From positions 1 to 64,000 of IMG/VR virus record IMGVR_UViG_3300028797_000099: DNA of 64,000 nt; one strand, written 5' to 3'. Made by a program: the position numbers and the translations under genes. Of this stretch, positions 3,857 to 63,491 are shown one piece after another (within the stretch, counting starts at the first letter, position 1; each line of letters starts with the position of its first letter). The notes under the pieces are model-generated. The model was not told the DNA's origin, ran no database searches, and saw nothing but the letters and a program-made list of their open reading frames with translations. Origin of the DNA: a virus (taxonomy: Duplodnaviria > Heunggongvirae > Uroviricota > Caudoviricetes).

Positions 3857-3886
3857 AATATACATAAATAAATCCCCTCTGTCAAG
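3857..3886 (-). promoter_or_regulatory. sigma70-like promoter (TTGACA-18-TATATT) with -35 in hairpin loop
   Basis: Read in the transcribed orientation: CCCCCTCTTGACAGAGGGGATTTATTTATGTATATT. Confidence 0.5.
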
Positions 3887-3915
3887 AGGGGGTTGGAAAT
3901 TTTTTTGTATCGGGC

Positions 3916-4119
3916 CTATAAGATACCCCGTTTTTCCACCGTTTTGGCATCCAAGGAGAAAGTGGCACCGCAAACGGAGCAACGCTTGATATAGACGAGT
4001 TTTCCTGTTAGAGGGTCCCTTCGTGGTTCCACGTCGCCCGCCAAGTTGGAAATGACGGGCTTGACGGAATCTTCCCCGTTGCACAGGGGGCATCGTGACC
4101 AGGTGTGCGTAAGTGTCAT
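3916..4119 (-). CDS. zinc-ribbon protein
   Basis: CPLCNG...CSVCG gives a C4 zinc ribbon. 67 aa. Confidence 0.5.
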   Translation of the reverse strand: MTLTHTWSRCPLCNGEDSVKPVISNLAGDVEPRRDPLTGKLVYIKRCSVCGATFSLDAKTVEKRGIL

Positions 4120-4120
4120 T

Positions 4121-4306
4121 TCATCTCCTGTATCTTTCCTTGTATATCAAATCCAGCAGGGTCCAGAAGGAAGCGGTATTGACGATGACGAAGATGACGA
4201 GGCCGACTATATGGAGAACGGAGAGTTCTGCCGTATATAGGAGGTAGATTCCTAGTACTACGGCGACCATATTGATGAAGCAGATGTAGTCTTTATTGTG
4301 GTTCAT
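4121..4306 (-). CDS. small membrane protein (2 TM)
   Basis: 61 aa with two hydrophobic helices. Confidence 0.45.
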   Translation of the reverse strand: MNHNKDYICFINMVAVVLGIYLLYTAELSVLHIVGLVIFVIVNTASFWTLLDLIYKERYRR

Positions 4307-4321
4307 GCGGCTACTCCGTGG

Positions 4322-4894
4322 TTAGAACGGGTCGTGCATCTTCTTTTCCATAGTCCAGTAGTACTTGTGGATTGCGTTAATGAACATGGTTTCAATCAAC
4401 GACCATATCCTTTCGTTCGTGTCCTTGGAATGTCCGTAGTGTTGGAATCCTTTACGGAGGTTGCCAAGCATTATGTCGGCTGCCTTCTTTCCGTTGATAT
4501 ACGTACGAATCACGTAACAGGCATGTACGCATGCCTCCTCGGGATGTGTCATATCGTCGAGCCACCTGGTAATGTGCTTTCGGTCTGTAACTCGGTTGAA
4601 CCCCATGAAGCCAGGGAAGCAGTGCCTGTGGGACTGGTACAGGAAGCGGCATAGGCTGTTGACCAGCTCCACGGGTATCATCTGCCCGTTGGATACATAG
4701 GAGAACATCTTCTCGGTGAAACGACGTTTTTCCTCATCGTAGCATTTCCTGACCTCACGGTTGTTATTTATCTCGTCTTCGAGCGTTGCTGCTTCGCTCT
4801 TATCGAGGGTATCACGAATCTTAGCCAACTCGGCCTGACATCCGTCGTGGTTCAGTGTTCGGATATACCTTGTTATCTCGGTTACTTTCTGCAT
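4322..4894 (-). CDS. hypothetical protein
   Basis: 190-aa ORF. Confidence 0.5.
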   Translation of the reverse strand: MQKVTEITRYIRTLNHDGCQAELAKIRDTLDKSEAATLEDEINNNREVRKCYDEEKRRFTEKMFSYVSNGQMIPVELVNSLCRFLYQSHRHCFPGFMGFNRVTDRKHITRWLDDMTHPEEACVHACYVIRTYINGKKAADIMLGNLRKGFQHYGHSKDTNERIWSLIETMFINAIHKYYWTMEKKMHDPF

Positions 4895-4914
4895 GATGTT
4901 CCAATTAGATTTAG

Positions 4915-5103
4915 TTAGGAAATTACTAGATAATACGGGCCGACCCTATTGTGGCATACAACTTTTTGTTCAGAGTCAACATCGAAAATCGGTTCGAAAT
5001 CTGGGTATAGCCAACCCTCTTCCCTGACTGGTTTCATACATTCCATGTCGCCGTGTTTCTCGATTTCGGCTTGTATCAGTTCTATCAATTCGGATGCTTT
5101 CAT
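4915..5103 (-). CDS. small hypothetical protein
   Basis: 62-aa ORF. Confidence 0.35.
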   Translation of the reverse strand: MKASELIELIQAEIEKHGDMECMKPVREEGWLYPDFEPIFDVDSEQKVVCHNRVGPYYLVIS

Positions 5104-5131
5104 CAGTTCGCTCCTATGACCTCTTTACCAT

Positions 5132-5160
5132 AATATAGGTAATTAAAGGCGTGTTGTAAA
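5132..5160 (-). promoter_or_regulatory. promoter variant TTTACA-17-TATATT
   Basis: Read in the transcribed orientation: TTTACAACACGCCTTTAATTACCTATATT. Confidence 0.4.
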
Positions 5161-5179
5161 GGGAAGTTGTGTAAAATTT

Positions 5180-5449
5180 CTATTTTTTCTTTTCTGCGTA
5201 AATCATCATGCCGAAGCCGTCGCTTACTTCGTCGAGGTAGACATCGTCTTTTAGGTACTCGCTGATGCGACCGAAGAACATGAGGTCAGTTGGGGTGTTC
5301 TTGCACCTGACGTAGCTTGAACATGCCCCTGCGCTTCTCTGCCAGTGGTTGGCGTGGGTGGTCTTCCAAGTTGGAATATCCACCTCGTAGCCGAGTTCTT
5401 TCTTGATGCGTTCGGCGAGTTTTTCACGGAGGGTCTTGCGTTTAGGCAT
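5180..5449 (-). CDS. hypothetical basic protein
   Basis: Start trimmed to MPKRKTL behind an AGGAGA RBS. Confidence 0.45.
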   Translation of the reverse strand: MPKRKTLREKLAERIKKELGYEVDIPTWKTTHANHWQRSAGACSSYVRCKNTPTDLMFFGRISEYLKDDVYLDEVSDGFGMMIYAEKKK

Positions 5450-5459
5450 GGTTGTTCTC

Positions 5460-5684
5460 CTAGCAATAGTCCAGTGTCCAAATCCAGTCGGCTGTTGCGG
5501 ATATCCAATTAGATTCATTTATGTATTCATCCCTCTTGGGGAATTCCTCGTCGATGGCGTACTCGTTGTTGGAAATCATTTCATCGGCTTCGTCATCGGT
5601 GAGGTAGCCGGGGCCGTCGTCGAGGGGGAGGAGCTGGGAGGTGAGGTTCTCCTTCACCTTTTTCCTGAATGTCGCTTTATCCAT
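5460..5684 (-). CDS. small highly acidic protein
   Basis: 74 aa, D/E-rich (DDEADEMISNNEYAIDEE). Confidence 0.45.
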   Translation of the reverse strand: MDKATFRKKVKENLTSQLLPLDDGPGYLTDDEADEMISNNEYAIDEEFPKRDEYINESNWISATADWIWTLDYC

Positions 5685-5694
5685 AGGGCATCCT

Positions 5695-6216
5695 TTAACC
5701 GAGGAGGATTTTCGTAAGGGCTTCGGTGAACTTCTTGTCGAGCTCTACTATGGCATCCGTCACGGTAAGCACAAGGTTCATCCTTGCACGGCAGACGCTG
5801 TTCAGGTCGTACGGGCTATTGTATCTACCGTCGGAATAGCGTTCGTATTGCTCGGCCTTGCAACGGAACGAGTCGGAGCCAGCGGCGAGCTTGTCGAGTG
5901 ACTTTAATGTGGTCTTGATTGCTGCGACCTTCCTTATTTCCGTCGTGGTGACTAAGCCACTCTTGGCGAGGTCGATTAGTCTGTTCATGAAGTACAGCTT
6001 GATGTCACTCATGTCCTGCAGGTATGCGTTCTGCGCCTTCACGCCGATTTCCGCATCGAGGACCTCGAAGTCTTTCTCAGTCCATGTCTCGTCGAACTTA
6101 ACCTGTCCGCACAGGGTTTCGAACTCGTATGCCTCATTCGGTGTCATCTTCTTGAGTTCAGGGTTCGTACGGAGGTATTTTTCGAGAAATTCACGGGTGT
6201 TCTTAAAGTAATCCAT
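5695..6216 (-). CDS. hypothetical protein
   Basis: 173-aa ORF. Confidence 0.5.
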   Translation of the reverse strand: MDYFKNTREFLEKYLRTNPELKKMTPNEAYEFETLCGQVKFDETWTEKDFEVLDAEIGVKAQNAYLQDMSDIKLYFMNRLIDLAKSGLVTTTEIRKVAAIKTTLKSLDKLAAGSDSFRCKAEQYERYSDGRYNSPYDLNSVCRARMNLVLTVTDAIVELDKKFTEALTKILLG

Positions 6217-6226
6217 TTTGGTTTCC

Positions 6227-6805
6227 TTATAGTTTCAATTTGCCTCTGATTGCCTCGCACCATTCCTTGCGAAGAACCTGGAGGAGGGTCTTCTGCATCT
6301 CTATGGTATCGGGGTCGTCGGCACAGAGGTATGTCGTTCCAGACCTGTCCTGGATGAAGATGCAGTCTTCAGCCTGCTTGATTGTGCTTTTCAGCAGAGT
6401 AGTCTTCCAAGCGTCGTCGAGAACGAGTGTCTTCTCGGTTTCCTTGGCTATTTTTCGAACAAAGTCGCTTCCTTCGGTTACGACGGTTTTCCAACCGAGG
6501 GTAGGGTAGTCAACCTTGGGTTTAAATACTTTCTTCTTTTGGCGGTAGTAATCCTGAAAGCATCCCTTGTAGTTCTTCCGGCGGACACAGTAGTGGTGGC
6601 AATCCCACCTGTTACCGTGAGTGTTTTCGCATCCCATGGCCTTGCATTCCTCGAAGGTATGCTTCGGGACGAGGGCGTAGGCTTCCTCTTTGAGTTCGTC
6701 TATCTGGGCAACCAGCTCGTCGATACGCTTGCTAATTGATTTCAGTTTAGCCCAGGTCTCTTCCGAGATGGATTCCATCTGTGGCGGTTGCGGTTTCTTA
6801 TCCAT
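6227..6805 (-). CDS. hypothetical Cys/His-rich protein (possible zinc-binding or HNH-like)
   Basis: CENTHGNRWDCHHYC cluster. 192 aa. Confidence 0.4.
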   Translation of the reverse strand: MDKKPQPPQMESISEETWAKLKSISKRIDELVAQIDELKEEAYALVPKHTFEECKAMGCENTHGNRWDCHHYCVRRKNYKGCFQDYYRQKKKVFKPKVDYPTLGWKTVVTEGSDFVRKIAKETEKTLVLDDAWKTTLLKSTIKQAEDCIFIQDRSGTTYLCADDPDTIEMQKTLLQVLRKEWCEAIRGKLKL

Positions 6806-6821
6806 GGGGGAAATCCTGTTG

Positions 6822-7280
6822 CTACATGATTTTCATGCGGTCTTCGATTGAACCTTCGTCATTGTCGAAGGCTGACTTTTCGAGGAGGCCCACCAGATAC
6901 TTTCGCTTGGCTTCCTCGTCCTTGCTGTCCCATGCGAGATGACGGAACAAGTCTTCGAGCTTGTAGAAGCGGAAATACTTCTTCCATTCCTCCGGGTTCT
7001 TGTCCTTGCTGTACACCTTCTTGATGTTGAAGAGGTTGAGGTAGAGTCGCTTGATAGCCTTTTCCACTTCACGGTGGATTTCGAGCTGCATGCAGTAGGA
7101 GTAGCCCTTCATGAAGCAGTCAATGGCGAGGTCTTTGTCCGCATCATTGACGCCTGCGATGTCGGCAAGGTCCTTAGCCTGTTCTTCGACATAGTTGAAC
7201 ACTTCTTCTGCTTCCTTCTTGGTCTTTGCGATGGGGAAGAGCCATTTGAGGTCGTTGTGGGTCTTTGTAAACTTTCTCAT
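6822..7280 (-). CDS. hypothetical protein
   Basis: 152-aa ORF. Confidence 0.5.
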   Translation of the reverse strand: MRKFTKTHNDLKWLFPIAKTKKEAEEVFNYVEEQAKDLADIAGVNDADKDLAIDCFMKGYSYCMQLEIHREVEKAIKRLYLNLFNIKKVYSKDKNPEEWKKYFRFYKLEDLFRHLAWDSKDEEAKRKYLVGLLEKSAFDNDEGSIEDRMKIM

Positions 7281-7284
7281 GGGA

Positions 7285-7629: not shown

Positions 7630-7663
7630 TGGTTGAATCCTTTCTTGATTGGTTACAAAAAAC

Positions 7664-7692
7664 AATATAGCTAATTAAAGCTATATTGTCAA
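7664..7692 (-). promoter_or_regulatory. promoter TTGACA-17-TATATT (42-nt near-identical copy of 13744-13772)
   Basis: Read in the transcribed orientation: CTTGACAATATAGCTTTAATTAGCTATATT. Confidence 0.55.
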
Positions 7693-7717
7693 GGATTATT
7701 TTGATTTTTTTGATATT

Positions 7718-10915: not shown

Positions 10916-10944
10916 AATATAGAAAATTAAATCGGTGTTGTCAA
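10916..10944 (-). promoter_or_regulatory. promoter TTGACA-17-TATATT
   Basis: Motif match. Confidence 0.5.
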
Positions 10945-11780: not shown

Positions 11781-11809
11781 AATATAGATAATTAAATATC
11801 AACTGTCAA
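11781..11809 (-). promoter_or_regulatory. promoter TTGACA-17-TATATT
   Basis: Motif match. Confidence 0.5.
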
Positions 11810-13719: not shown

Positions 13720-13743
13720 GTTGACTCCTTATGTTACAAAAAC

Positions 13744-13772
13744 AATATAGCTAATTAAAGCTATATTGTCAA
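13744..13772 (-). promoter_or_regulatory. promoter TTGACA-17-TATATT (repeat of 7664-7692)
   Basis: Motif match. Confidence 0.55.
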
Positions 13773-13798
13773 GAGGTGTAACAACAAAAATTTAATAA

Positions 13799-17584: not shown

Positions 17585-17610
17585 TGGTTATGTATTGTCT
17601 ACATGCAATA

Positions 17611-17638
17611 ATGTAGGCAATTAAATCGAAATTGTCAA
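17611..17638 (-). promoter_or_regulatory. promoter TTGACA-16-TACATT
   Basis: Motif match. Confidence 0.4.
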
Positions 17639-18874: not shown

Positions 18875-18911
18875 AAATATAACTAATTAAACCCACTCTG
18901 TCAAGTGGGTT
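18875..18911 (-). promoter_or_regulatory. promoter TTGACA-17-TATATT with -35 in loop of AACCCAC/GTGGGTT hairpin
   Basis: Motif plus hairpin. A T-run lies on the plus side. Confidence 0.5.
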
Positions 18912-18943
18912 TTTTATTTTTTATTCGCCTTTCATTCAGGTCC

Positions 18944-21750: not shown

Positions 21751-21778
21751 AATATAGCATATTGCCGTAACTTGTCAA
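21751..21778 (-). promoter_or_regulatory. promoter TTGACA-16-TATATT
   Basis: Motif match. Confidence 0.45.
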
Positions 21779-21838: not shown

Positions 21839-21982
21839 ATGGCAGCAAGAATCGTTGATACCGTATGTGCCACGCTCGTAATGCTGGCGGTCGCACTCGT
21901 CTCCCCACTCCTCATCGCAGCATACACGGAAGCAAAGAAGGCGGAACCCTGGCTAGACAAGAATCTTGACACGCAGAAGTAA
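21839..21982 (+). CDS. small membrane protein (47 aa, absent from ORF track)
   Basis: ATG behind an AGGAAACC RBS. TM helix VCATLVMLAVALVSPLLIAAY. Confidence 0.4.
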   Translation: MAARIVDTVCATLVMLAVALVSPLLIAAYTEAKKAEPWLDKNLDTQK

Positions 21983-21992
21983 ATTGTATATC
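21966..21992 (+). promoter_or_regulatory. plus-strand promoter TTGACA-15-TATATC
   Basis: Precedes the plus gene block 22020-24648. Confidence 0.35.
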
Positions 21993-22019
21993 TTTTACAT
22001 CAAGCTAAAAGGAAATAAT

Positions 22020-23556: not shown

Positions 23557-23593
23557 AAATTCTGTTTACATTCATTATTTTTTCGCTCGTGTA

Positions 23594-23622
23594 TTGACAC
23601 GGGCGATTTTATTATGTATATT
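23594..23622 (+). promoter_or_regulatory. plus-strand promoter TTGACA-17-TATATT overlapping hairpin CGCTCGTG...CACGGGCG
   Basis: Motif match. Confidence 0.5.
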
Positions 23623-25782: not shown

Positions 25783-25811
25783 AATATAGAAAATAAAAAG
25801 ACGGTTGTCAA
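25783..25811 (-). promoter_or_regulatory. promoter TTGACA-17-TATATT
   Basis: Motif match. Confidence 0.45.
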
Positions 25812-26622: not shown

Positions 26623-26665
26623 AGTATAAACCAAATTCACTTGACTATAGTTTATATAATAAAAA

Positions 26666-28053: not shown

Positions 28054-28082
28054 AAATATAGCACATTAAAAGTCGGCTGTCA
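28054..28082 (-). promoter_or_regulatory. promoter TTGACA-17-TATATT
   Basis: Motif match. Confidence 0.5.
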
Positions 28083-28086
28083 AGGG

Positions 28087-28795: not shown

Positions 28796-30007
28796 TTACT
28801 CCGATGCCTTGAAGTTATATACAGGCTTGATTGTTTCGACAATATCGCAACTGTCCTTGATGTTCTCGATGATTTCCTTTGCTGGCTTGTAAGCCATCGG
28901 GGATTCATCCAAAGTGGATTTATTTACACATGTACTGTAAATGCCACGCATGGACTTCTGGTACGCTTCGAGCGAGATGCTTTCCTTCGCATGAGAGCGT
29001 GACATCTTTCTTCCTGCTCCATGCGGTGCAGAGAAGTTCCAATCAGAGTTTCCCTTGCCCGTGCAAATAAGAGCCCCGTCCCTCATGTTCATAGGAATAA
29101 TCAGGCGTTCGCCTTCCTGTGCGGATACAGCTCCCTTACGGAGAATCATGTGCTTCATGTCGATGTAATTATGCAAGGTGCAGAACTTGTCCACGACATG
29201 CAGACGGAGCGCCCTGACAATCTCTTCAAGCATCGCTTCACGGTTACGTGTTGCAAAGTCCTGTGCCAACGCCATGTCATGCAGATATCCGTCGAACGAC
29301 TTGCCAGTGAGGTAAGACAGTTCCTTCGGGGGAGGGAAATGAGGGATGCTTGCCAACGCTGCGGGAAGCTCGTCTTCACGACCCTCACTCTTATACTTGG
29401 CTATTATGGCACCACGCTGCTGAGTCAGGTCGTTGCATTCGTCGATTGCAACTCCCTGCCAGTAATCACAGGTTGCCAACCCAAGATGTCGGGAACCTGA
29501 GTGGATTACGATGTACAGGTTACCATGAGAATCCTTGTCGCATTCGCAGAAGTGATTGCCTCCGCCCAAACTTCCAAGCGACAACAACTCGGTATATTCC
29601 ATCTTCCCTTCCTTGTAGACAATCATATCCTCGATAGGAAAGTCCTTTGCCATCGAGTGCTTGCTTTCACGATGGGACTTCCCAGACGGAATCCTTTCAC
29701 GGATAACCTTGTCCAATTTATCAAAATCAACCGAACGGTCTTTCAACTTGGCAACAAGCATACCACACCCAATGTCCACCCCGACGAGATTAGGCACAAT
29801 CTTGTCCTTAATCGTCATGGTAGTGCCAACGGTGCAGCCCTTCCCAGCATGCACATCGGGCATGATTCTAACCTGCATGTCCTTAGCCCAGCACTGACAC
29901 ATCATGTTCAACAACTGTGTATATGCATCTGGGTCGATATTGTCGCTGAATACCTTGGCGGTATTAAACCTACCCTGTATATCAATCATAATAAACCTAT
30001 CTACCAA
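28796..30007 (-). CDS. rtcB: RNA-splicing ligase RtcB
   Basis: 403 aa with the diagnostic RtcB motifs MPDVHAGKG, GCGM, GGGNHF and HGAGR. Confidence 0.9.
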   Translation of the reverse strand: MVDRFIMIDIQGRFNTAKVFSDNIDPDAYTQLLNMMCQCWAKDMQVRIMPDVHAGKGCTVGTTMTIKDKIVPNLVGVDIGCGMLVAKLKDRSVDFDKLDKVIRERIPSGKSHRESKHSMAKDFPIEDMIVYKEGKMEYTELLSLGSLGGGNHFCECDKDSHGNLYIVIHSGSRHLGLATCDYWQGVAIDECNDLTQQRGAIIAKYKSEGREDELPAALASIPHFPPPKELSYLTGKSFDGYLHDMALAQDFATRNREAMLEEIVRALRLHVVDKFCTLHNYIDMKHMILRKGAVSAQEGERLIIPMNMRDGALICTGKGNSDWNFSAPHGAGRKMSRSHAKESISLEAYQKSMRGIYSTCVNKSTLDESPMAYKPAKEIIENIKDSCDIVETIKPVYNFKASE

Positions 30008-30353
30008 TCAATTCTTTTTTATAACCATAGGCAATATCAAATGCCTTACCCATCTCAATCGCCGCTCGGATAGCCTTCTTGATGTCATTATCCTTCACAA
30101 CGCAGTCGTACAGATTTCCGAACGCAACTGGACTCGAATACTCCCGGTCACGAGTACGTATTTCACTCCACATGAGTGTATTGCCGTCATTAGTATCCTT
30201 GTCCTTGTAGAAAGACATGTTCAAAACGGTGTTATTGAACGTGATATTCAACATGCTACCGTCAGCAACTACTCCACAGTCAGGCAGATAGTGCATAGCG
30301 AAATCAAGGTCATCCTTCTTGATTCGCAAATATTGAAGATTCCGTCGTGCCAT
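29997..30353 (-). CDS. hypothetical protein
   Basis: Track ORF trimmed to MARRNL (AAAGGAAT RBS). The longer N-terminus would read through the tRNA. Confidence 0.45.
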   Translation of the reverse strand: MARRNLQYLRIKKDDLDFAMHYLPDCGVVADGSMLNITFNNTVLNMSFYKDKDTNDGNTLMWSEIRTRDREYSSPVAFGNLYDCVVKDNDIKKAIRAAIEMGKAFDIAYGYKKELIGR

Positions 30354-30375
30354 AGTATTCCTTTTCAAAAAGTTA

Positions 30376-30449
30376 ATCGGGCAGGTGGGATTCGAACCCA
30401 CACTGAAGGGGGTTTAAACCCCATTCCTCTACCAGTTGGGTTACTACCC
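30376..30449 (-). tRNA. tRNA, anticodon UAA (Leu-type decoding) with short variable loop and imperfect D-stem (atypical)
   Basis: Minus-strand cloverleaf. Acceptor CGGGUAG/CUGCCCG (one G-U). D-loop AACUGGUA. Anticodon stem GGGG/CCCC. Loop UUUAAAC, anticodon UAA. T-arm GUGGG-UUCGAAU-CCCAC. No encoded CCA. 74 nt. Confidence 0.7.
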
Positions 30450-30462
30450 GAACCAATTCAAT

Positions 30463-31611
30463 TTAGTCAGAAAGCAGACGCTTGATTCTGTCACGAGCCC
30501 GCATGAAGTTTTCATGGTAGGTTCCGTTCAGATAAACAACATCTTCTGTGCAGTAGTGCTTACCGAGAATGCTCATCAAGACCTGATACTGCTTCTTCCT
30601 ATCTTCGAAGCTGTTCGTGAGGCAATCCCTGCTTCCGTCCTGCACCCAGCTATCTTTTTTCGGAGGCATAACGAAGATGAGGTCGTATTTCAGGAACTTC
30701 GCATTGGCTTCGATAAGCTTATAGTCGTCTTCGGTGATGGCATACCTGTCATCCATCGAGTAATACTTAGCGTACATGAGCGTTGTCATTGCGTCACTGT
30801 CACAGATGTTGACCTTATGCCAACTTGCCGAGTTGACTCTGTACTGCTCGTTAAGAAAACGAAGGTAGTCATTAAAGGTCAGCTTGGTATCATCAGGCTG
30901 CGGTTCCTTTCCGTTTTGAGCGGCGATGTAAGTGTGACCGTATTCCTCGGTGTACCCAACATCGAAGTATCTGGCAAGGTCTTTCGTGAGCGTGGACTTG
31001 CCTTCCGATGCCGTACCGATAATCAGGACACGCTTGGCGAACTGAGCCTTGAACTCATGCCCAATGATTTCGTCCCAATACTTCATCGGTTCCTTGCGTA
31101 TCTTTGTTGCAGAAATCTGATTGAGCTCTCTCGGCAACAGATACACATTGGGGCCTTTACTGACCAACGACATGATTGCCTGTCTGTACGACGGTTCGCC
31201 AGTAAAGACAGTCGTTTTCTGAAGCAATTTCGTACACTTTCGCTTGCTGACATCAGCATTGCCGTACACGATTTCAGCGAGCTTATCGCTGAGAGCTTCC
31301 AACCATTCAGACCATTTGTCCATGTAACCTGCAATGCCGATATCGTTATCCTTCATCATGACGACGTGAACAAGCGGGTCGCCTTCAAACATCTTCTTGA
31401 TGATTTCATAGCGACGTTCAATCGGAAGACCGATTCTCGTACCACGGTCGCCATCAAGCCCGCAAACGGCAATGATTGCACCCTTAGAGCAGAGCTTCTT
31501 CGCTGCCATTACGAGGTCAAGATGACCTGTATGCATCGGGCTGAAAGACCCGAGGACAACCCCGTATTCACGAGGGCCACCGCTGATTTGGTTAATCACG
31601 TCGTCAAGCAT
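30463..31611 (-). CDS. nadR: bifunctional NMN adenylyltransferase / ribosylnicotinamide kinase (NadR-like, no HTH)
   Basis: N-terminal nucleotidyltransferase motif GSFSPMHTGH (H/TxGH). C-terminal P-loop kinase GTASEGKST. Domain order matches NadR. Confidence 0.75.
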   Translation of the reverse strand: MLDDVINQISGGPREYGVVLGSFSPMHTGHLDLVMAAKKLCSKGAIIAVCGLDGDRGTRIGLPIERRYEIIKKMFEGDPLVHVVMMKDNDIGIAGYMDKWSEWLEALSDKLAEIVYGNADVSKRKCTKLLQKTTVFTGEPSYRQAIMSLVSKGPNVYLLPRELNQISATKIRKEPMKYWDEIIGHEFKAQFAKRVLIIGTASEGKSTLTKDLARYFDVGYTEEYGHTYIAAQNGKEPQPDDTKLTFNDYLRFLNEQYRVNSASWHKVNICDSDAMTTLMYAKYYSMDDRYAITEDDYKLIEANAKFLKYDLIFVMPPKKDSWVQDGSRDCLTNSFEDRKKQYQVLMSILGKHYCTEDVVYLNGTYHENFMRARDRIKRLLSD

Positions 31612-32295
31612 TTAAGCCTCCACAGTGTCTGTTTCAAGCTTCTTCTCGGTATGAGACCATTCGACCCAACCGTAGATGGTGTTGATAAACCAGCAAACAT
31701 ACATCGCCACCATTGCCCATTCGCCAATGAGTGCGAAAGTCACGATGGAAATGCCATCAAGCACAAACCAGAAGAACCACTGTTCACGGTAGCAAGTGAT
31801 AATGAGAATCTGAGCAATGACCGTGAAGCTTATGCTCAACGCATCCATGTACGGAACTGCACCGTCAAGAACAAACTTGTCGAACGTACCGAAGCCAACG
31901 GTAAGAACGATTGTCGCAATAATCGAAATAACCCATGCCTTAGGAGAGAGTCGCTTCGGAATAACGTGCGTTCTGTCCTTTTCGAGCTGCTTGTACCATG
32001 CGTACAAACCATACACCATCGTCACGTTGTAGAAGATATATTCGCCAAATTCAAGCCACAGGCGGCTTTCCCAACAGATGTACATATACATGAAGTTGAA
32101 AACGAAACTCGGTGCGTAAGCCCAGATGTTCTTCTGTGCAAACATCACGGTTGAAATCGTTCCCAGGAGTGCCGTCAGCATGGCAAACCACATTGCGGTA
32201 TGGCCATCAGGCATCATGATGGTGAAGATGATGGTGAAGATGATGAACGCTGTCATGTACAGCGCACGGAATTTATTTTTGATAAAAGACATATT
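31612..32295 (-). CDS. pnuC: nicotinamide riboside transporter PnuC-like membrane protein
   Basis: 227-aa Trp-rich polytopic membrane protein directly upstream of nadR, the classic pnuC-nadR arrangement. Start MSFIKN behind an AAAGAAGG RBS. Confidence 0.55.
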   Translation of the reverse strand, partial: NMSFIKNKFRALYMTAFIIFTIIFTIMMPDGHTAMWFAMLTALLGTISTVMFAQKNIWAYAPSFVFNFMYMYICWESRLWLEFGEYIFYNVTMVYGLYAWYKQLEKDRTHVIPKRLSPKAWVISIIATIVLTVGFGTFDKFVLDGAVPYMDALSISFTVIAQILIITCYREQWFFWFVLDGISIVTFALIGEWAMVAMYVCWFINTIYGWVEWSHTEKKLETDTVEA

Positions 32296-32330
32296 GCCTT
32301 CTTTGTTGATGGTTTTTGTTGTTTGTGAAA

Positions 32331-32359
32331 AATATACTAACTTCATTCCCCTCTGTCAA
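32331..32359 (-). promoter_or_regulatory. promoter TTGACA-17-TATATT driving pnuC-nadR; -35 in CCCC/GGGG hairpin
   Basis: Motif match. Confidence 0.5.
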
Positions 32360-32375
32360 GGGGGTTGCTCGATTT

Positions 32376-34571: not shown

Positions 34572-34601
34572 AAATATACATACTTCTTTTGAGATTGTCA
34601 A
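34572..34601 (-). promoter_or_regulatory. promoter TTGACA-18-TATATT
   Basis: Motif match. Divergent from the clpX promoter. Confidence 0.45.
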
Positions 34602-34633: not shown

Positions 34634-34662
34634 TTGCCACCCTATAAAAAATATACTATATT
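34634..34662 (+). promoter_or_regulatory. clpX promoter TTGCCA-17-TATATT
   Basis: Motif 24 nt upstream of the clpX RBS AAAGGAATTACC. Confidence 0.5.
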
Positions 34663-34685: not shown

Positions 34686-35945
34686 ATGCCAAGCAACAAA
34701 AGACCTACACAAAACGACACCCCGGTCTGCAGCTTCTGCGGACGCCCGATTGAAGAAAACACCCTTGCCGTACGTGGCATGTCCCCGATAGGAGCATTCA
34801 TCTGCTCTGATTGCGCCAAGCTCGCCAGCAACATTATGGATGCAAGAGCAGCACAGCAACAGCAGAATGGTCGCAAGAAAGAGATGCAGCTACCGTCTCC
34901 GCACAAGATTAAGGAACACCTTGACACGTTCGTCATCGGACAGGACAAGGCCAAGGAAGCCCTTTCCATTGCGGTGTACAACCATTACAAGAGACTGGAA
35001 TACAACGAAATCCGCTCAGACGATGATGTGGAAATCGAGAAGTCCAATGTCCTCCTCGTAGGCCCGACGGGCTGCGGAAAGACGATGCTTGCAAGGGCTA
35101 TCGCAAAGATGCTCAATGTCCCGTTCGCCATCGCCGATGCAACCGTCCTGACCGAAGCTGGCTATGTGGGCGAAGATGTGGACAGCATCATTTCCCGCCT
35201 CCTCCAAGCGGCAAACATGGACGAGAAGGAAGCCGAGCACGGCATCATCTTCCTCGACGAAATCGACAAGATTGCAAGGAAGAGTGCCAACCCGTCCATT
35301 ACCAGGGACGTATCGGGCGAAGGCGTACAGCAGGGCCTGTTGAAGCTCCTCGAAGGAACTGAGGCCAAAATCAATCCGCAGGGTGGCAGAAAGCATCCCG
35401 AACAGAAACTGATTACCATTGACACCAGGAACATCCTCTTCATCTGCGGTGGAGCTTTCGAGGGCCTTGACGAAATCATCTCCGAACGTACTGAAAAAGG
35501 CGGCATGGGATTCGGTGCAGCCATCCACACGAGGGAAAAGAAAAGCCTCAGCGAACTGTTCGATAAGTGCGAACCTGATGACCTCGTGAGGTTCGGACTC
35601 ATGCCGGAACTCGTTGGCAGACTTCCCGTTACCGTCGCCCTTGACGAACTCGACGAGGACGCCCTCCGCAGAATCCTGACCGAACCGAAGAACGCTATCA
35701 TCAAGCAGTACACCAAGCTGCTCGAACTCGACGGAATCAAACTTTCGTTCGACGAGGAAGCGCTCGGGGAAATCGCCCGCCTGACCATCGAACGCCATAC
35801 TGGCGCCCGTGGCCTCCGTTCCATCGTCGAAGAGTTGCTCCACGACGCAATGTTCATGGGCCCCGACAGCAAGGAAAAGGAACTCCGCATCACGCAGGAT
35901 ATGGTCATGGAACACTTCCATATCCAAGAGCGGAAAGCTTCCTGA
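34686..35945 (+). CDS. clpX: ATP-dependent Clp protease ATP-binding subunit ClpX
   Basis: N-terminal C4 zinc finger CSFCGR...CSDC. Walker A GPTGCGKT. Walker [10 protein letters not shown]. Sensor and arginine-finger regions. 419 aa. Confidence 0.9.
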
Positions 35946-37441: not shown

Positions 37442-37470
37442 AATATAGTTAATTTTTTGTAATTTGTCAA
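37442..37470 (-). promoter_or_regulatory. promoter TTGACA-17-TATATT, -10 ends 6 nt before ATG
   Basis: Motif match. Confidence 0.45.
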
Positions 37471-37505
37471 TCAATTAAAAGAATCGGGGCAAAAACACCC
37501 CGATT
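37469..37505 (-). terminator. terminator AATCGGGG-loop-CCCCGATT plus T-run
   Basis: Ends the 37651-38175 transcript after a GC-rich 3' UTR. Confidence 0.5.
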
Positions 37506-38692: not shown

Positions 38693-38730
38693 CAATATAA
38701 CAAAAAAGCGGATGGCTGTCAACCATCCGC
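38693..38730 (-). promoter_or_regulatory. terminator hairpin GCGGATGG/CCATCCGC with TTGACA in loop, plus -10 TATATT
   Basis: Hairpin followed by a T-run on the minus strand after lemA. A -10 lies 18 nt downstream of the loop TTGACA. Confidence 0.5.
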
Positions 38731-39385: not shown

Positions 39386-39415
39386 AAATATAGCATTTAA
39401 CTTGGTGCTTGTCAA
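39386..39415 (-). promoter_or_regulatory. promoter TTGACA-18-TATATT
   Basis: Motif match. Confidence 0.45.
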
Positions 39416-43289: not shown

Positions 43290-43319
43290 AAATATAGTCT
43301 TTTAAATCCTTTTTGTCAA
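43290..43319 (-). promoter_or_regulatory. promoter TTGACA-18-TATATT (upstream of QueC-like gene)
   Basis: Motif match. Confidence 0.45.
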
Positions 43320-43338: not shown

Positions 43339-43367
43339 TTGACAATTTACAAAATAATAACTATTTT
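43339..43367 (+). promoter_or_regulatory. plus-strand promoter TTGACA-17-TATTTT
   Basis: Divergent from the 43290-43319 promoter. Confidence 0.4.
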
Positions 43368-47195: not shown

Positions 47196-47224
47196 AATAT
47201 AGTACATTATTAACTACTTGGCAA
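47196..47224 (-). promoter_or_regulatory. promoter TTGCCA-17-TATATT
   Basis: Motif match. Confidence 0.45.
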
Positions 47225-49035: not shown

Positions 49036-49064
49036 AATATACATAATTAAATAACGCCTGTCAA
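49036..49064 (-). promoter_or_regulatory. promoter TTGACA-17-TATATT
   Basis: Motif match. Confidence 0.5.
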
Positions 49065-52535: not shown

Positions 52536-52566
52536 ATTTATCTCCAGGTGGATGTCTATAATAAAA

Positions 52567-52593
52567 AATATAAATAAATAAACAATTTGTCAA
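52567..52593 (-). promoter_or_regulatory. promoter TTGACA-15-TATATT (metallophosphoesterase operon)
   Basis: Motif match. Confidence 0.35.
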
Positions 52594-52884
52594 TAGGCGC
52601 TTCAATATTTTTAATTAAATTGATTGTAAATACTTTTTTACATAAATCATCCACAATAACCTTATAGACTTAGTACAATAAACTATATGTATGGACCATG
52701 GAAAGACTATCATGAAAATTCAGATGTTGGTTATAGGAGCCCACATACTGAGAAAACGAGAAGAAGGCGTAGATGAATCATCTAACGTCCTCGCTAGGCA
52801 GTGGATTGACGAACACGGCCTAGAATTCAGGAAGCTTTTCCAAACCGTCAGCAGCATAGTGAAATAATTATTTATATTGCCCCT

Positions 52885-52912
52885 TGACAACCCGTTTTTA
52901 ATTTTGTATATT
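52885..52912 (+). promoter_or_regulatory. plus-strand promoter TTGACA-16-TATATT
   Basis: Precedes the NUMOD3 gene. Confidence 0.5.
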
Positions 52913-54586: not shown

Positions 54587-55251
54587 GCCCAGCTGGGCAG
54601 TTTATCCGTCAATGTCTTGTCGAAGACGGTACGCTTTGCGTCATATATCCTGAATCCATTGTATCTAAACCACGGTTCCATGAAGTATTCGCAAATATAC
54701 CCATCAATTCGTGGGCTTTTAAACTTATGGATTTCATCAAAGTCTTTAAGAACCCCATTGAATATAAAATCAAAGAACATATTGGCAAGTCCCTTACGGC
54801 AAATAAACATGTTTCCAAGGTAAATATGGTCACCAATAAAGTTCGTTTTAAAATAGTTCGCCATATCTTTGCCGAAATTCACCTGGACGACGGCCAAGCC
54901 TAGTGCAAGTTCATTGCGCTTCCCGGTCATAGTCATGTGTTCCATGGCGTTCTGTTTCAATTCACTCCTGAACATGATGACATCATTCTTTTTAAGGATG
55001 CCACGTATTTCGAAATCAGAAAGCAGGGTTCCGTTATCGTTGGTGAAGTACCTTCTATAATGTTCAAGGCCTACGATATCGTCATTACAATGCTTCCATA
55101 GGTAATACATGCCCGTAAGCTCACTATACCAAGGGTTGAGCGAATCTATATTATCGCCATCATGGTCAACATCGACCAAGAACTTCTCCCTAATATCATC
55201 AAGAGGTCGAAACTTGGTTTTGCTGCTTCCTACAACATATATCTTAGTCAT
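54583..55251 (-). CDS. DUF4422-like putative glycosyltransferase
   Basis: NPWYSELTGMYYLWKHCND block resembles the DUF4422 signature (NxxYCELTxxYWxWKN) of polysaccharide-biosynthesis transferases. Confidence 0.45.
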   Translation of the reverse strand: MTKIYVVGSSKTKFRPLDDIREKFLVDVDHDGDNIDSLNPWYSELTGMYYLWKHCNDDIVGLEHYRRYFTNDNGTLLSDFEIRGILKKNDVIMFRSELKQNAMEHMTMTGKRNELALGLAVVQVNFGKDMANYFKTNFIGDHIYLGNMFICRKGLANMFFDFIFNGVLKDFDEIHKFKSPRIDGYICEYFMEPWFRYNGFRIYDAKRTVFDKTLTDKLPSWA

Positions 55252-56470: not shown

Positions 56471-56499
56471 TTGACAATCATGTTTTAATTATGTATATT
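56471..56499 (+). promoter_or_regulatory. plus-strand promoter TTGACA-17-TATATT
   Basis: Precedes the secreted protease homolog. Confidence 0.5.
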
Positions 56500-57745: not shown

Positions 57746-57852
57746 TGTTGTATCCTTCAAGTGTAATTCTGCATATAGTTTATATCATCGAAACATTCAC
57801 CCAATATGCAAAAAAGGTTATAAACTATTGGTGAATATCACAATGGTATATT

Positions 57853-59157: not shown

Positions 59158-59167
59158 TTGGTTTCCC

Positions 59168-59920: not shown

Positions 59921-59937
59921 ATCACATTACCTCACGC

Positions 59938-60354: not shown

Positions 60355-60412
60355 AAACCTATCCTCGGGCATGTAACCATACCCTTAGTTTATAGTTTCG
60401 GGCCCCTTCAAA

Positions 60413-60805
60413 CTAAAAGTTTTGAATAGCTTTTTCCCTCAAATCTCGTACAATTTCCTTATAAATTTGCAGCACGTCACGAACGAAATCGACGACGTTC
60501 ACGTCGTGCTTCGAGACGCTTCCACACAGGGATACACCGCCCATCTTGTTGAAGTTGAACAGGCAGTGGTAGTCGGTGCAAAGTTGTTCGTAATACTCGT
60601 AGAACTCGTCCTCCACGCTTATGCTTTCGCTCGAATCGAGCCATTCCTTATCTCTCTCATCATCCCAGCAAATGAATGGGTAGCAACGTATTGCGGGCTT
60701 TCCGCTTGAATCCAGTTTACCAAATGTGATATTGTCATAGATTATCATCCCATCCTTGGTTACTGTGAGGCCCATGGATGTCAGCCTTCTGATTAGCTCT
60801 TTCAT
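60413..60805 (-). CDS. hypothetical protein
   Basis: 130-aa ORF. Confidence 0.45.
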   Translation of the reverse strand: MKELIRRLTSMGLTVTKDGMIIYDNITFGKLDSSGKPAIRCYPFICWDDERDKEWLDSSESISVEDEFYEYYEQLCTDYHCLFNFNKMGGVSLCGSVSKHDVNVVDFVRDVLQIYKEIVRDLREKAIQNF

Positions 60806-61018
60806 GAGAAGAGTTCCTGTATGTCTAATAAGGGTTTATACTTATTCCAGGACGGCATACAAAACAAGGGCCGCCAGCCTTATGCTGACGACCCCAGGAA
60901 CCTTTTCTACACTTGCAGATAGGCAAAATAGATAAGTGCCAGCAACGGTCCCATGCCTATATGATGGCGACGCAATCGCTGACACTCATCTATTTGTTTA
61001 TACAATGAATTTTACAGG

Positions 61019-61456
61019 TTATTTTTTGCCCGTGCTTCCAAAGCCGCCACGGTTTTCACCCGTAAGTTCAGATTCAATGAAGTTGAGCTTCGGCTGGTTT
61101 TCAATCACACGGAACTGTGCAATGCGGCTACCCTTTTCGATTGTGGTATCTTCCGTTGCATAAACAGGAAGTTTCCACCAGTCATTCGGACCGCAGTAAG
61201 AACAGTCGACCACACCGACACTGTTGGTCTGGAGAACCTTGAAGTTCTTGTATGTGGAGCTACGAGGTGCGAGATGCGCTTCGTAACCCTGCGGCAACTG
61301 CATAGCAACGCCAAGATGGATAAGCTTAAATTCACCCTTCTTCAACGTAACAGTTTCGGCTGCTGCCAAGTCAATCCAGTCAGACTTGCCTGCAACATAG
61401 GTCAGGCGGGCGATGCTGTCGTCAAGGTACTTGATTTTGATATTCAATTCACTCAT
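61019..61456 (-). CDS. dut: dUTP diphosphatase (dUTPase)
   Basis: Start MSELNI behind an AAAGGA RBS. Motifs GVVDCSYCG (motif 3) and RGGFGSTG (motif 5). The longer track N-terminus is in frame but has no RBS. Confidence 0.8.
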
Positions 61457-61475
61457 TTTTTGATTCCTTTTTTGA

Positions 61476-61862
61476 TTAAAACAGGTCAGACGAATCCGTT
61501 TCGTCAGACTCTTCCGTCGGTGCATACTTGCCCTCGATTGTAGCAGTAAAGTCAAACATCGAAGACACAGATACATCCACATTGGAATATTCCACATCGT
61601 AGTGAGAAAGCGTATCTTCAAGGTCAGATGCAATCCTCTCTTTCAAATACGAGTCAAGCGAAGTTTCTGTCTCGAACTTAGCCCCATCCGGGTTCGCCAC
61701 AGCCCAGTCCTTAGAATGGTATGCCACAGTGATGACGACAACATTGCCTGCATCCTGGTCCATTTCGCTTTCTACTTTCATGCAATCGCAGTCAATTTCA
61801 AGTTGGTCCTGAAACCATTCCTTGACATCAACGCTCAAATCTTCAAGCTCTTCATCGTTCAT
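61476..61862 (-). CDS. hypothetical very acidic protein (DNA-mimic candidate)
   Basis: 128 aa, about 26% D/E, few basic residues. Confidence 0.45.
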
Positions 61863-61874
61863 ACGAACCTCCGA

Positions 61875-62768
61875 TTACAATATAGTATTTACACCCTTTT
61901 CTTTCAAGAGGGCAAAGAACTTTTCTGGCGTAATAATCTTAACGCCGAGCTGTTTTGCCTTCTTGGACTTCGTGGAGGTAGAGTTTTCGTCAGCCTGTAC
62001 GAGATAGTCCAGCTTTGCGCTTACGCTTCCCTTTACCTGTCCACCAAATGTCTTCACAGTGCGTTCAAGGTCGTCACGGTTGTATTCCATAGCTCCCGTG
62101 AAGCAGAACGACATTCCGCCGAGCGCATCCATTTCTACAGGTTTCTTGAAAGTGAATTTGCCCAATTCAAGAACCCCGACGATTTCATCGAGAGCAGCGA
62201 ACATCTGGGTAAACAGATTCATTTTGACATCATATGCGCTAAACCCATTGATTGCTAGCGTGGAGAGTCTTTCCGGGGTATACGAGCTGAATGTAGCCAT
62301 TGTCGAAAGCGGATTTTCATACCATCCGCCGAACAATTCAAGCGTTTCCAATCCAGACAGCTTTGCTTCGGAGAAACCATCAAAGTCAAACATAGACAGG
62401 AACTTGCTCATTGAAATCGGCTTGCTTAACGCAGCAAGCATATTGTTTCGCAACTTAGCCCCGTTTACCTGGCTCTTCATGGCAAGCGAAATGTCGTTTC
62501 CGCCAGACACAGCATCGGAAATCAGCTCAGGAATCTTTTTCATTCCCACTTCGTTGACAAGGGCGGTAACACAACTTTCGCCTGCACCGTCTATTTCCAA
62601 CACGTCGAAGAAGTTGGCAAACTTGTGGACAATCTTCTGCGGGCACGACGGGTTCACGCAGCAAACCATCCCGTTGTCCATTACATTCAACTCTCCGTGG
62701 CATACAGGACATTCCTTAGGGAACGCAATGTTAGATGCCACATATTCTTTGTACTTTTCTGGAACCAT
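61875..62768 (-). CDS. ligA: NAD+-dependent DNA ligase, C-terminal fragment (Zn finger, HhH, BRCT)
   Basis: CPVCHGEL...CVNPSCP zinc finger, helix-hairpin-helix region, and BRCT SFCFTGAMEYNRDDLERTVKTFGGQV...DYLV. The start overlaps the protease stop as TAATG. Confidence 0.7.
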   Translation of the reverse strand: MVPEKYKEYVASNIAFPKECPVCHGELNVMDNGMVCCVNPSCPQKIVHKFANFFDVLEIDGAGESCVTALVNEVGMKKIPELISDAVSGGNDISLAMKSQVNGAKLRNNMLAALSKPISMSKFLSMFDFDGFSEAKLSGLETLELFGGWYENPLSTMATFSSYTPERLSTLAINGFSAYDVKMNLFTQMFAALDEIVGVLELGKFTFKKPVEMDALGGMSFCFTGAMEYNRDDLERTVKTFGGQVKGSVSAKLDYLVQADENSTSTKSKKAKQLGVKIITPEKFFALLKEKGVNTIL

Positions 62769-63436
62769 TATAACTCCCATGCAAGTTTAGCTGACTTGAA
62801 CTCATCCAGCGAGTTCAAGATACTGATGACACATTTTTTAACATTTTTGGTGTTCGGATATTCCGTCACACCGTTTCTTTCAAGCATACGAATAACCTCC
62901 GTAGACTTAACCAAGTTGCTCGTATTGCGTTCTACCGTCGATACCGACCTGCTTACGCCACCAACCCTTCCATCCCTGGTAAAATTGGGCCCGCCGGACA
63001 TTCCAACCTGCAGTAGTCCATTCATGCGATAAAAACTAGGTTCGCCTTCATAGTTGTACAACAAGCGTATATCCATCGGTATAATAGTCGGATTATGCTC
63101 GATAAACGGCTGAGGATAACCATACGCAGTTAGCTTCTCCCCGATAGGCAGTTCCGTATGGGCTAAGCGGCATACCATAGGCAATGAGGTAGGAGTCTCT
63201 TTCAACTTTAACAAGGCAATATCAGACAGCGAGTCGTAATCCACTATACGGACCTGGTAGCAAGTATCATTCTTCATGTCATAATAGCATGCATGTCTAT
63301 AATTCGACACTACATGATATGCAGTCACAATGTACTTGCTGTTTACAAAGAACCCCGTTCCTCCATGCACATCCTCGACAACCTCAGCAAAGGAAGCGCA
63401 AGCGAACAACAAAATGATAGCGAGTAGTTTTTTCAT
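62768..63436 (-). CDS. secreted trypsin-like serine protease (S1 family)
   Basis: Signal peptide. His motif TAYHV, Asp DIALLKL, Ser GMSGGP. Confidence 0.7.
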   Translation of the reverse strand: MKKLLAIILLFACASFAEVVEDVHGGTGFFVNSKYIVTAYHVVSNYRHACYYDMKNDTCYQVRIVDYDSLSDIALLKLKETPTSLPMVCRLAHTELPIGEKLTAYGYPQPFIEHNPTIIPMDIRLLYNYEGEPSFYRMNGLLQVGMSGGPNFTRDGRVGGVSRSVSTVERNTSNLVKSTEVIRMLERNGVTEYPNTKNVKKCVISILNSLDEFKSAKLAWEL

Positions 63437-63462
63437 GATGTTACCTCTTTGTTTACACCTAA

Positions 63463-63491
63463 AATATACCTAATTAAATGTTTCCCGGCAA
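63463..63491 (-). promoter_or_regulatory. promoter TTGCCG-17-TATATT inside the split ligA locus
   Basis: Drives the protease gene and the ligA C-terminal fragment. Confidence 0.45.

Follow-up and report, generated by a model that had tools for sequence, protein, structure and literature searches.

The closest described counterparts of the element reported here are the promoter-early stem-loops (PeSLs) of T4-type phages, terminator/early-promoter cassettes that occupy hyperplastic genome regions, have been shown to have both promoter and terminator activity, and recombine into mini-circles (Arbiol et al. 2010, PMC2839356; Comeau et al. 2014, PMC4122927). They have been described in RB49/phi1, T4/PST and KVP40/nt-1. 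We analyzed a 64-kb stretch of an uncultured tailed phage from the rumen (positions 1 to 64,000 of IMG/VR record IMGVR_UViG_3300028797_000099, hereafter the window), which exact protein matches place on the Joint Genome Institute (JGI) contig Ga0394155_0000002 (422,009 bp), and found 28 credible copies of one conserved promoter element, some of which fold a hairpin around their own -35 box. This element is an overlapped version of the promoter-terminator cassettes known from T4-like phages, with the PeSL as the closest known case. We consider it likely that it is the early-class promoter of a ~420-kb lytic megaphage and is read by the host RNA polymerase (RNAP) with its primary sigma70-type factor. 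Our best reading of the hairpin-bearing copies, which are a minority, is that they are promoters fused to intrinsic terminators.

PeSLs and our element both consist of many near-identical intergenic cassettes in a gene-dense, plastic region of small open reading frames (ORFs). In both, the cassette has an upstream tract rich in A and T, a sigma70 promoter close to consensus (TTGACA-N17-TATAAT in RB49), a stem-loop of G/C tracts ending upstream transcription (a predicted function in our case), a Shine-Dalgarno (SD) site and an ATG, and the length and similarity of the copies are sufficient for homologous exchange. In PeSLs, however, the stem-loop is a regular component located just upstream of the promoter, while in our element it is present in 5-6 of the 28 copies and encloses the -35 box (C-arm, TTGACA loop, G-arm), and the promoter spacer doubles as the U-tract. 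Only one window copy (37442) has a PeSL-like upstream stem-loop, and about 22 copies have none. Our element also differs in its -10 hexamer (TATATT), in its near-invariant spacer sequence TTTAATTA, in belonging to an uncultured 420-kb megaphage that probably infects Fibrobacteraceae and has no demonstrated relationship to T4, and in that we saw no enrichment of breakpoints at it in comparisons with fragmentary relatives.

Two further groups of phage promoters are similar in design. The T4 early "uber" promoters carry consensus beyond the canonical elements (PMC2988021), and the jumbo phage vB_PcaM_CBB has RpoD-like early promoters, 18 of them in its 356-kb genome (PMC5259590). As in our element, these combine an UP element with -35 and -10 boxes, have extra conserved positions and cluster ahead of short hypothetical early genes, although dependence on host sigma70 is something that we infer in our case. 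All of these phages also have a separate T4-late-like A/T-rich motif for other gene sets, which is TATAAAC here. Unlike the T4 and CBB promoters, the element has no TGn extended -10, but has C or G at -13 and TTTAATTA at -22 to -15, and it is far denser (~0.44 copies per kb in the window and 0.6-0.8 per kb in related contigs). Intrinsic terminators in general resemble the hairpins in their GC-rich stem (6-10 bp), short loop (4-7 nt) and T-rich tail and in their position behind a co-directional gene, and two of the element hairpins are made symmetric by the upstream A-tract, as are bidirectional intrinsic terminators with A- and T-tract flanks. The element differs from an ordinary intrinsic terminator in that the loop is the -35 hexamer, the next promoter supplies its spacer as the tail, and the U-tract is interrupted (UUUAAUUA).

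The pattern TTGACA-N15-18-TATATT has 20 exact matches in the window, compared to 0.07 expected from 100 dinucleotide-preserving shuffles (shuffle maximum 1), which rules out chance or low complexity as its source. When the spacer is fixed at 17 nt and as many as two mismatches are allowed, 34 sites match versus 6.5 expected. A scan that allowed at most one mismatch overall and a spacer of 16-18 nt returned 28 sites, consisting of 27 plausible copies and a site at 54761, inside a gene, that we treated as spurious. To the 27 we added the site at 63463-63491, which has two mismatches and a typical spacer, for a total of 28 credible copies between positions 3857 and 63491. An initial annotation of this DNA, made from the sequence alone, had described about 27 copies of cTTGACA-N15-18-TATATT, and both this number and the first and last coordinates it gave hold up. 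The spacer is 17 nt long in 26 of the 28 copies, even though 15-18 nt were permitted in the search.

We built a gene map of the window from codon bias and ribosome-binding sites, which contains 131 genes and 38 intergenic gaps of at least 40 nt. Nearly all of the copies are intergenic, and 23 of the 38 gaps contain one, with the gaps that hold copies being 58-155 nt long. Every copy is oriented toward its downstream gene, and the distance from the end of the -10 box to the ATG is 6-38 nt (16-38 nt for nearly all copies), so the placement ahead of operons on both strands that had been proposed is what we see. In three of the gaps, which are divergent, two copies stand back-to-back or face each other (34573/34634, 43291/43339 and 21751/21966). 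The leaders are short and A-rich with an SD site at their end, and a 4-mer SD core precedes 108 of the 131 genes (82%) versus 15% of random 15-mers, in agreement with the AGGAGG-type ribosome-binding sites noted earlier. A conserved hairpin in the 5' leader after the start site is not a general feature of the 28 copies (mean z -0.2; 3/28 below -1.5), and a search against Rfam found only a tRNA-Leu, with the element matching no known RNA family.

The conserved element exceeds the two hexamers. It consists of an A-tract (-55 to -47), CCyC (-39 to -36), TTGACA, TTTAATTA (-22 to -15), TATATT and an A at +1. When the window copies are aligned on the -35 box, the columns that were not used for selection are conserved nonetheless: the A/T-rich stretch at -55 to -47, CCyC at -39 to -36, A or G at -29, TTTAATTA at -22 to -15, C or G at -13 and T at -5. 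The TTAATTA-like spacer of the initial annotation is therefore a genuine part of the element, since columns -22 to -15 are conserved despite having had no role in choosing the copies. All six -35 positions match TTGACA in 20/28 copies, and the -10 box is TATATT, with A at -11 and T at -7 invariant in the 27 spacer-17 window copies that we tabulated. Among 178 copies from six related contigs, the -35 bases T, T, G, A, C and A are found in 178, 178, 178, 170, 175 and 157 copies (which partly reflects selection on the hexamers), TTTAATTA is near-invariant (159-175 copies), an A5 run at -54 to -50 is strong, and the seventh base after TATATT is A in 153 copies, with a pyrimidine before it. An A after a pyrimidine, 7 nt past the -10 box, is as expected of a start site, and we predict that transcription begins there. 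The position, orientation and spacing of the element, its invariant A at -11 and T at -7, the purine at +1 and the upstream A-tract support a sigma70-type promoter, as had been suggested.

Hundreds of further copies of this element are found in a clade of ~420-kb megaphages from rumen and gut. The strict 20-base motif TTGACA-N7-TTTAATTA-N2-TATATT is present in many copies per contig in a small set of contigs, which includes a 419-kb IMG/VR contig (IMGVR_UViG_3300021400_000141, OCVV012835588.1), contigs of 175, 277 and 279 kb, a 317-kb and a 101-kb contig of a sheep "Bacteroidaceae" metagenome-assembled genome (MAG), one contig of an "Alistipes" MAG, and many rumen metagenome contigs. The DNA common to the window and its relatives is limited to gene-sized patches of 70-95% identity. 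The promoters mostly travel with their downstream gene: the motif is kept ahead of 32 of 49 homologues of genes that follow a promoter copy, but of only 4 of 128 homologues of genes without one (odds ratio 58, p 1e-18). The copies provide a high-confidence map of the predicted early transcription units of an uncultured megaphage clade that a single 20-base pattern can find in rumen and gut metagenomes.

To look for hairpins, we folded the segment from -49 to -17 of every copy. Five of the window copies have hairpins that enclose the -35 hexamer, with free energies of -10.2 to -16.4 kcal/mol and z-scores of -2.2 to -5.7. On the minus strand, CCCCTC-TTGACA-GAGGGG at 3874-3891 (-12.5 kcal/mol, z -2.2) is followed by ATTTATTTAT and is the predicted terminator of the co-directional upstream gene at 3916-4119. 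Also on the minus strand, AAACCCACT-TGAC-AGAGTGGGTTT at 18889-18912 (-14.1 kcal/mol, z -4.5) is followed by AATTAGTTAT, and because there is an A-tract upstream it also scans as a plus-strand terminator. The plus-strand hairpin TCGCTCGTGTA-TTGA-CACGGGCGA at 23583-23606 (-15.9 kcal/mol, z -5.7), followed by TTTTATTATG, includes a U.G pair that is present on the sense strand only. The most canonical terminator of the set is GCGGATGG-TTGACAG-CCATCCGC at 38708-38730 (minus strand, -16.4 kcal/mol, z -3.3), which is followed by TTTTTTGTTA. The fifth, CCCCCT-TGAC-AGAGGGG at 32348-32363 (minus strand, -10.2 kcal/mol, z -2.25), is followed by AATGAAGTTAG. All five stand behind a co-directional gene, four of the five are among the best hits of a generic terminator scan of the window, and in four a T-rich tail comes directly after the stem (ATTTATTTAT, TTTAATTAGTT, ATTTTATTAT and TTTTTTGTTA). 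The initial annotation listed five hairpins followed by a T-run, and all five do exist, but the T-run is missing from the copy at 32331. A separate terminator hairpin in the classical PeSL-like order is located directly upstream of the 37442 promoter (37482-37505, minus strand, -14.4 kcal/mol).

As controls we used chimeras in which the 5' flank of one copy is joined to the 3' flank of another. Hairpins of -8 kcal/mol or below were found in 6/28 window copies versus 6.3% of chimeras (p 0.007), and hairpins of -10 kcal/mol or below in 9/178 copies of the relatives versus 0.9% of chimeras (p 4e-5). In all of the sequence that we examined, 30 of 636 distinct copies have such a hairpin. These include at least eight distinct stem sequences with pairing kept in all of them (for example, CCCGC/GCGGG, CCCCC/GGGGG, CCCCA/TGGGG, CCCAC/GTGGG and GGATGG/CCATCC), and the orthologue of the 23594 copy has a compensatory change (CTCGTG/CACGGG versus CTCATG/CATGGG). 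Stability favors the sense RNA over the antisense in 23 cases versus 7 (p 0.005), with the caveat that orthologues are not independent and the counts are approximate. The stem register of one copy can be 2 nt away from that of another, although the -35 box and spacer align all copies without gaps, and because of this shift we relied on the chimeric and sense/antisense comparisons rather than on a fixed-register count of covariation. The 3' arm ends at -24/-23, which places the conserved TTT of the spacer directly after the stem. The fused terminator-promoter of the initial annotation withstands these comparisons, with enrichment over chimeras, covarying stems and a favored sense strand, but it describes five of the 28 copies, one of which has no T-run.

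In the mechanism that we propose, each copy would be a maximal-strength promoter of ~60 nt, consisting of the UP-like A-tract, CCyC, TTGACA, 17 nt that include TTTAATTA, TATATT and the start A 7 nt further on, after which would come the short A-rich leader, the SD site and the gene. Dozens of such copies, placed ahead of nearly every short transcription unit of the accessory region, would break up a long run of small co-directional genes into units able to outcompete host promoters right after infection. In about one-fifth of the window copies, and about one-twentieth of those in relatives, the six variable bases after the -35 box complement the C-rich bases that precede it. The RNA of the upstream unit would then fold into a GC hairpin whose loop contains the -35 hexamer, and the conserved T-rich spacer would serve as the U-tract, so that upstream transcription would stop inside the next promoter. 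Transcripts from that next promoter would not contain the hairpin and hence would be unaffected. The enrichment, placement, orientation and extended conservation of the motif are observations, as are the hairpins and their covariation, and we infer the polymerase that reads it, the early timing, and that termination actually occurs. A -35 box in a terminator loop, with the spacer as U-tract, would be a compact way to insulate dense transcription units and might be reused as a synthetic part.

Several points weigh against this interpretation. The hairpin is found in only 5/28 copies (about 18%). The tail AATGAAGTTAG of the 32331 copy is not T-rich, which makes a terminator role for its hairpin doubtful, and the U-tract TTTAATTA is broken by A's, because of which termination may be partial. 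Both TTTAATTA and CCyC are conserved as strongly as the hexamers although a plain sigma70 promoter needs neither, and another factor may read them; that this is a phage factor is a further possibility. Part of the conservation of TTTAATTA could be explained by the sensing of the spacer near -18 by sigma70 (PMC3130263), and more of it by its second role as a U-tract. The host assignment given below draws on two genes, ClpX and a split NAD-ligase, while binning has put clade members into Bacteroidales MAGs, and most gut NAD-jumbo phages are tied to Bacteroidota by CRISPR spacers (PMC11662467). Finally, the absence of a sigma or RNAP gene holds for the ~94 kb of the genome that we inspected, and the other 358 kb are unsurveyed for them.

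Copies this uniform might be maintained for a different reason. It is possible, although we doubt it, that the uniformity of the element is kept mainly because it is a portable recombination site, at which homologous exchange would insert, delete and swap promoter+ORF cassettes and homogenize the copies, while promoter activity would be the vehicle. The presence of identical cores ahead of unrelated genes makes recombination at the motif plausible. The two copies at 7664 and 13744, which the initial annotation described as near-identical over about 42 nt and able to mediate recombination, are 100% identical over 36 nt (7658-7693 and 13738-13773), making 42 nt slightly generous, and both their flanks and their flanking proteins are unrelated. 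In the clade, 73 identical 30-nt cores are common to distinct copies, and 226 pairs have unrelated flanks, several of them about 1 kb apart in one locus. Locus L138 has a tandem cassette duplicate 140 nt apart, and the relative L020 has an extra promoter+ORF cassette beside the orthologue of the 56471 copy. The region is also extremely mosaic, with single-gene-sized patches that are 85-95% identical, and PeSLs provide a precedent that includes detected mini-circles (PMC2839356). However, synteny is broken at 71% of the junctions with the motif versus 65% of those without (p 0.36-0.66), a comparison with fragmentary relatives that shows no enrichment of breaks at motif junctions but has limited power. 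Single genes such as the one at 1995-2288 move without a motif on either side, so that most shuffling does not require the element, and the identical cores could also reflect selection for one optimal sequence. The ability of the copies to mediate recombination therefore stands as a possibility only. Around the same part of the window, the single-gene patches at 1990-2311, 2470-3251 and 4321-4753 are 90-95% identical to up to ten contigs with both neighbors different in each, and the borders of these patches are sharp, lie at gene ends, and have no promoter element.

A broader idea, which we put forward as speculative, joins the two functions. With the C-rich arm and the U-tract (TTTAATTA) present from the outset, a six-base change after the -35 box would suffice to turn a promoter into a promoter plus terminator. 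The ~60-nt element might then be a dual-purpose, half-built terminator module that sits on every early promoter of a Fibrobacter megaphage clade, with hundreds of identical 30-60-nt copies per genome that would also be PeSL-like recombination sites driving the turnover of gene cassettes. If this is true, PeSL-type modular shuffling reaches beyond T4-like phages to megaphages. In either case, the clade offers a second, independent system in which to ask whether the modular shuffling of genes in large phages is driven by repeated promoter-terminator cassettes.

We think it unlikely that the hairpins around the -35 box are something other than terminators, such as promoter-regulating palindromes in the DNA (operators or cruciforms) or structures at RNA 3' ends that only stabilize the upstream transcripts. 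The center of the hairpin is indeed a protein-binding box, the 32331 copy has no T-run, and other copies (7664 and 13744) have palindromes elsewhere in the promoter. But stem sequences vary while pairing stays, unlike in a sequence-specific operator, G.U pairs make the sense RNA the more stable one in 23/30 cases, and the stems end directly ahead of the conserved TTT. The location of all five behind co-directional genes and the high rank of four of them in the generic scan also argue for terminators fused to promoters.

The remaining alternative concerns the polymerase. The motif could be read by a phage-specified system, be it a phage sigma, a virion-delivered factor or a modified host polymerase, with CCyC and TTTAATTA as specificity determinants, and such a system would be obligatory if the host belonged to Bacteroidota, whose primary sigma does not use TTGACA/TATAAT. 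The information in TTTAATTA and CCyC equals that in the hexamers, the MAG bins and the CRISPR-based assignments mentioned above point to Bacteroidota, and some huge phages encode their own sigma70 (PMC7162821). Even so, we regard this as distinctly unlikely, given that early genes require a polymerase that is present at injection, that full TTGACA/TATATT hexamers with a 17-nt spacer, an UP-like A-tract and a pyrimidine-purine start are the textbook signature of host sigma70, and that neither a sigma nor an RNAP gene is found in the ~94 kb inspected. The promoters and genes themselves also argue against a Bacteroidota host, and we return on these grounds to host sigma70 as the preferred reading.

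The consensus for the primary sigma of Bacteroidota is -33 TTTG / -7 TAnnTTTG, with a conserved final G. At position -36, where this consensus needs T, the 27 tabulated window copies have C in 20 and T in none. At -5, where it needs G, the element has T or A, with G in 2/27 window copies and 9/178 clade copies, and the ACA of TTGACA, which the consensus does not require, is near-invariant. The use of SD sites by 82% of the genes is ill-matched to the ribosomes of Bacteroidia, which are SD-blind (PMC9976891, PMC7797042). SD sites precede 18 of 31 Fibrobacteraceae chromosomal genes.

Two phage genes point to Fibrobacteraceae. Outside of the phage clade, the nearest relatives of the phage ClpX are a cluster of ~30 proteins that are themselves 72-89% identical to named Fibrobacter ClpX, and one member of this cluster sits in a tig-clpP-clpX-lon locus. 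The phage protein is 59-62% identical to this Fibrobacter-like cluster versus 54-57% to Bacteroidota. The phage NAD-ligase is encoded by two separate genes, one for the adenylation+OB part (447 aa) and one for the BRCT part (297-301 aa). Among cellular proteins, close relatives (57-59%) occur only in Fibrobacteraceae and Fibrobacter MAGs, where the ligase is equally split and located beside the nuo operon, while canonical LigA is ~30% identical. The chromosomal halves in Fibrobacteraceae are 354 aa and 290 aa and have no protease gene (L226); in the phage, a trypsin-like protease gene lies between the halves (window 61875-63436, and L225 8585-11562 on the same contig just past the end of the window). 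We also tried UDP-galactopyranose mutase as a host marker and found it uninformative, with a flat 45-50% identity to many taxa.

The strict motif also has hits in three Fibrobacter MAGs (L071, L094 and L098). We considered whether these could be phage fragments, but they belong to a chromosomal operon, which stands behind a TTGACA-N17-TATATT promoter with TTTAATTA in the same register. Judged by sequence, this operon looks like an AbiEi/AbiEii toxin-antitoxin pair, and a palindromic operator whose arms covary overlaps the spacer and -10 box of its promoter.

Based on these two genes, we believe that the host is probably a member of Fibrobacteraceae and not of Bacteroidota, and that the binning in Bacteroidales is probably an artefact. 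The assignment of the promoter to a non-Bacteroidota host by the initial annotation agrees with all of this except the presence of clade members in Bacteroidales MAGs. Together with the promoter, the ClpX and split-ligase evidence would reassign phage contigs filed in Bacteroidales MAGs to a probable Fibrobacteraceae host, a family for which, to our knowledge, few phages have been described. In one GTDB-representative "Bacteroidaceae" MAG, JAFXNA010000004.1 and JAFXNA010000009.1 (317 kb and 101 kb, ~418 kb together; loci L059-L061, L075, L077, L079, L081, L088 and L096) look like one genome of a megaphage of this clade. The clade further includes a 10-kb contig from an "Alistipes" MAG.

The individual copies are on the minus strand unless stated otherwise. 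Four of the copies that we have discussed for their hairpins have exact hexamers and the -35 box within the hairpin: 3857-3885 (spacer 17, -35 in the loop, driving the gene at 3236-3826), 18876-18904, 23594-23622 (plus strand) and 38694-38722. The fifth, 32331-32359, is also exact and lies ahead of the pnuC-nadR operon, and 49036-49064, another exact copy, has a weak hairpin (-8.3 kcal/mol) across its -35 box. The copies at 10916-10944, 11781-11809, 25783-25811 and 39387-39415, as well as 52884-52912 and 56471-56499 on the plus strand, are exact. The twins at 7664-7692 and 13744-13772 share a 9-bp inverted repeat around TTAATT (AATATAGCT-TTAATT-AGCTATATT, at 7661-7690 and 13741-13770) that is formed from the spacer and the -10 hexamer and is operator-like. 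In the divergent gaps, 34573-34601 (exact) is back-to-back with 34634-34662 (plus strand, TTGCCA), which drives clpX (34686-35945); 43291-43319 (exact), which drives the queC and radical-SAM genes, is back-to-back with 43339-43367 (plus strand, TATTTT); and 21751-21778 (spacer 16) shares its region with 21966-21994 (plus strand, TATCTT, one mismatch). Departures from the consensus are also found at 5132-5160 (TTTACA, one mismatch), 17610-17638 (TACATT, one mismatch), 47196-47224 (TTGCCA, overlapping the final codons of the upstream gene) and 52565-52593, which can be read as TTGACA-N17-TATTTT or as N15-TATATT. The two weakest copies are 61879-61907 (TTGAAA, within the 3' end of the BRCT gene) and 63463-63491 (TTGCCG, with the TTTAATTA spacer).

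In two exact copies, 28055-28083 and 37442-37470, the downstream ATG is at the predicted start site, 7 and 6 nt past the -10 box, respectively, so their transcripts may be leaderless or the starts mis-called. We also see TATATT or TATAAT 6-7 nt ahead of the ATG in some Fibrobacteraceae chromosomal genes (L228 2289 and 8776). The longest ORF for pnuC (31612-32346) begins inside the promoter, at 32346, but the true start is probably an ATG about 40 nt past the -10 box, behind AAAGAAGG. With its start downstream of the -10 box, pnuC would form one promoter-led operon with nadR (30463-31611).

The proteins encoded in the window include RtcB, PnuC-NadR, ClpX, QueC, a radical-SAM enzyme, UDP-galactopyranose mutase, glycosyltransferases, an SPFH protein, an M29 peptidase, LemA/TPM and the BRCT part of the NAD-ligase, and the rest are many small ORFs without matches. 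A megablast search of the window against 50,697 phage records found no match, and thus no close cultured relative, and at the protein level RtcB and NadR match only unrelated phages, at 35-52%. The ~94 kb inspected contained no hallmark genes of virion structure or replication. Among the large ORFs of related loci, which we searched for hallmark, sigma and RNAP genes, we found only Cas12-like/TnpB, Cas3-like, AAA, NAPRTase and DUF4422 proteins. The Cas-like and TnpB proteins include a Cas12f1-like TNB domain in proteins of 833 aa and 671 aa (L110 224-2725 and L079 3530-5545), an IS605 OrfB/TnpB of 426 aa (L203 3487-4767), and a Cas3-like HD-helicase of 777 aa (L014 3350-5683), which may represent phage-borne CRISPR or TnpB systems. 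To the right of the window, a Ro60/TROVE homologue (447 aa) adjoins ~4 kb that are almost without called genes (L225 1-5700). Together with RtcB and the tRNA-Leu(TAA), both of which lie in the window (28796-30451), it points to an RNA-repair module that may include Y-RNA or tRNA genes.

The second promoter-like motif, TATAAAC(TA), is found 27-33 nt ahead of start codons in gaps that do not have the TTGACA element. We noted sites at 26650-26656, 57778-57784, 60388-60394, 60834-60840 and 60996-61002 on the minus strand and at 57819-57825 on the plus strand. In the window, 8 of 13 occurrences of TATAAAC are non-coding, compared to a non-coding fraction of 7.6%, and the motif is invariant at orthologous sites in relatives where the flanks have diverged. 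It resembles the late promoters of T4-type phages (TATAAATA) and marks a better-conserved module at 57-64 kb, which contains the ligase and dUTPase/dCTP deaminase-like genes.

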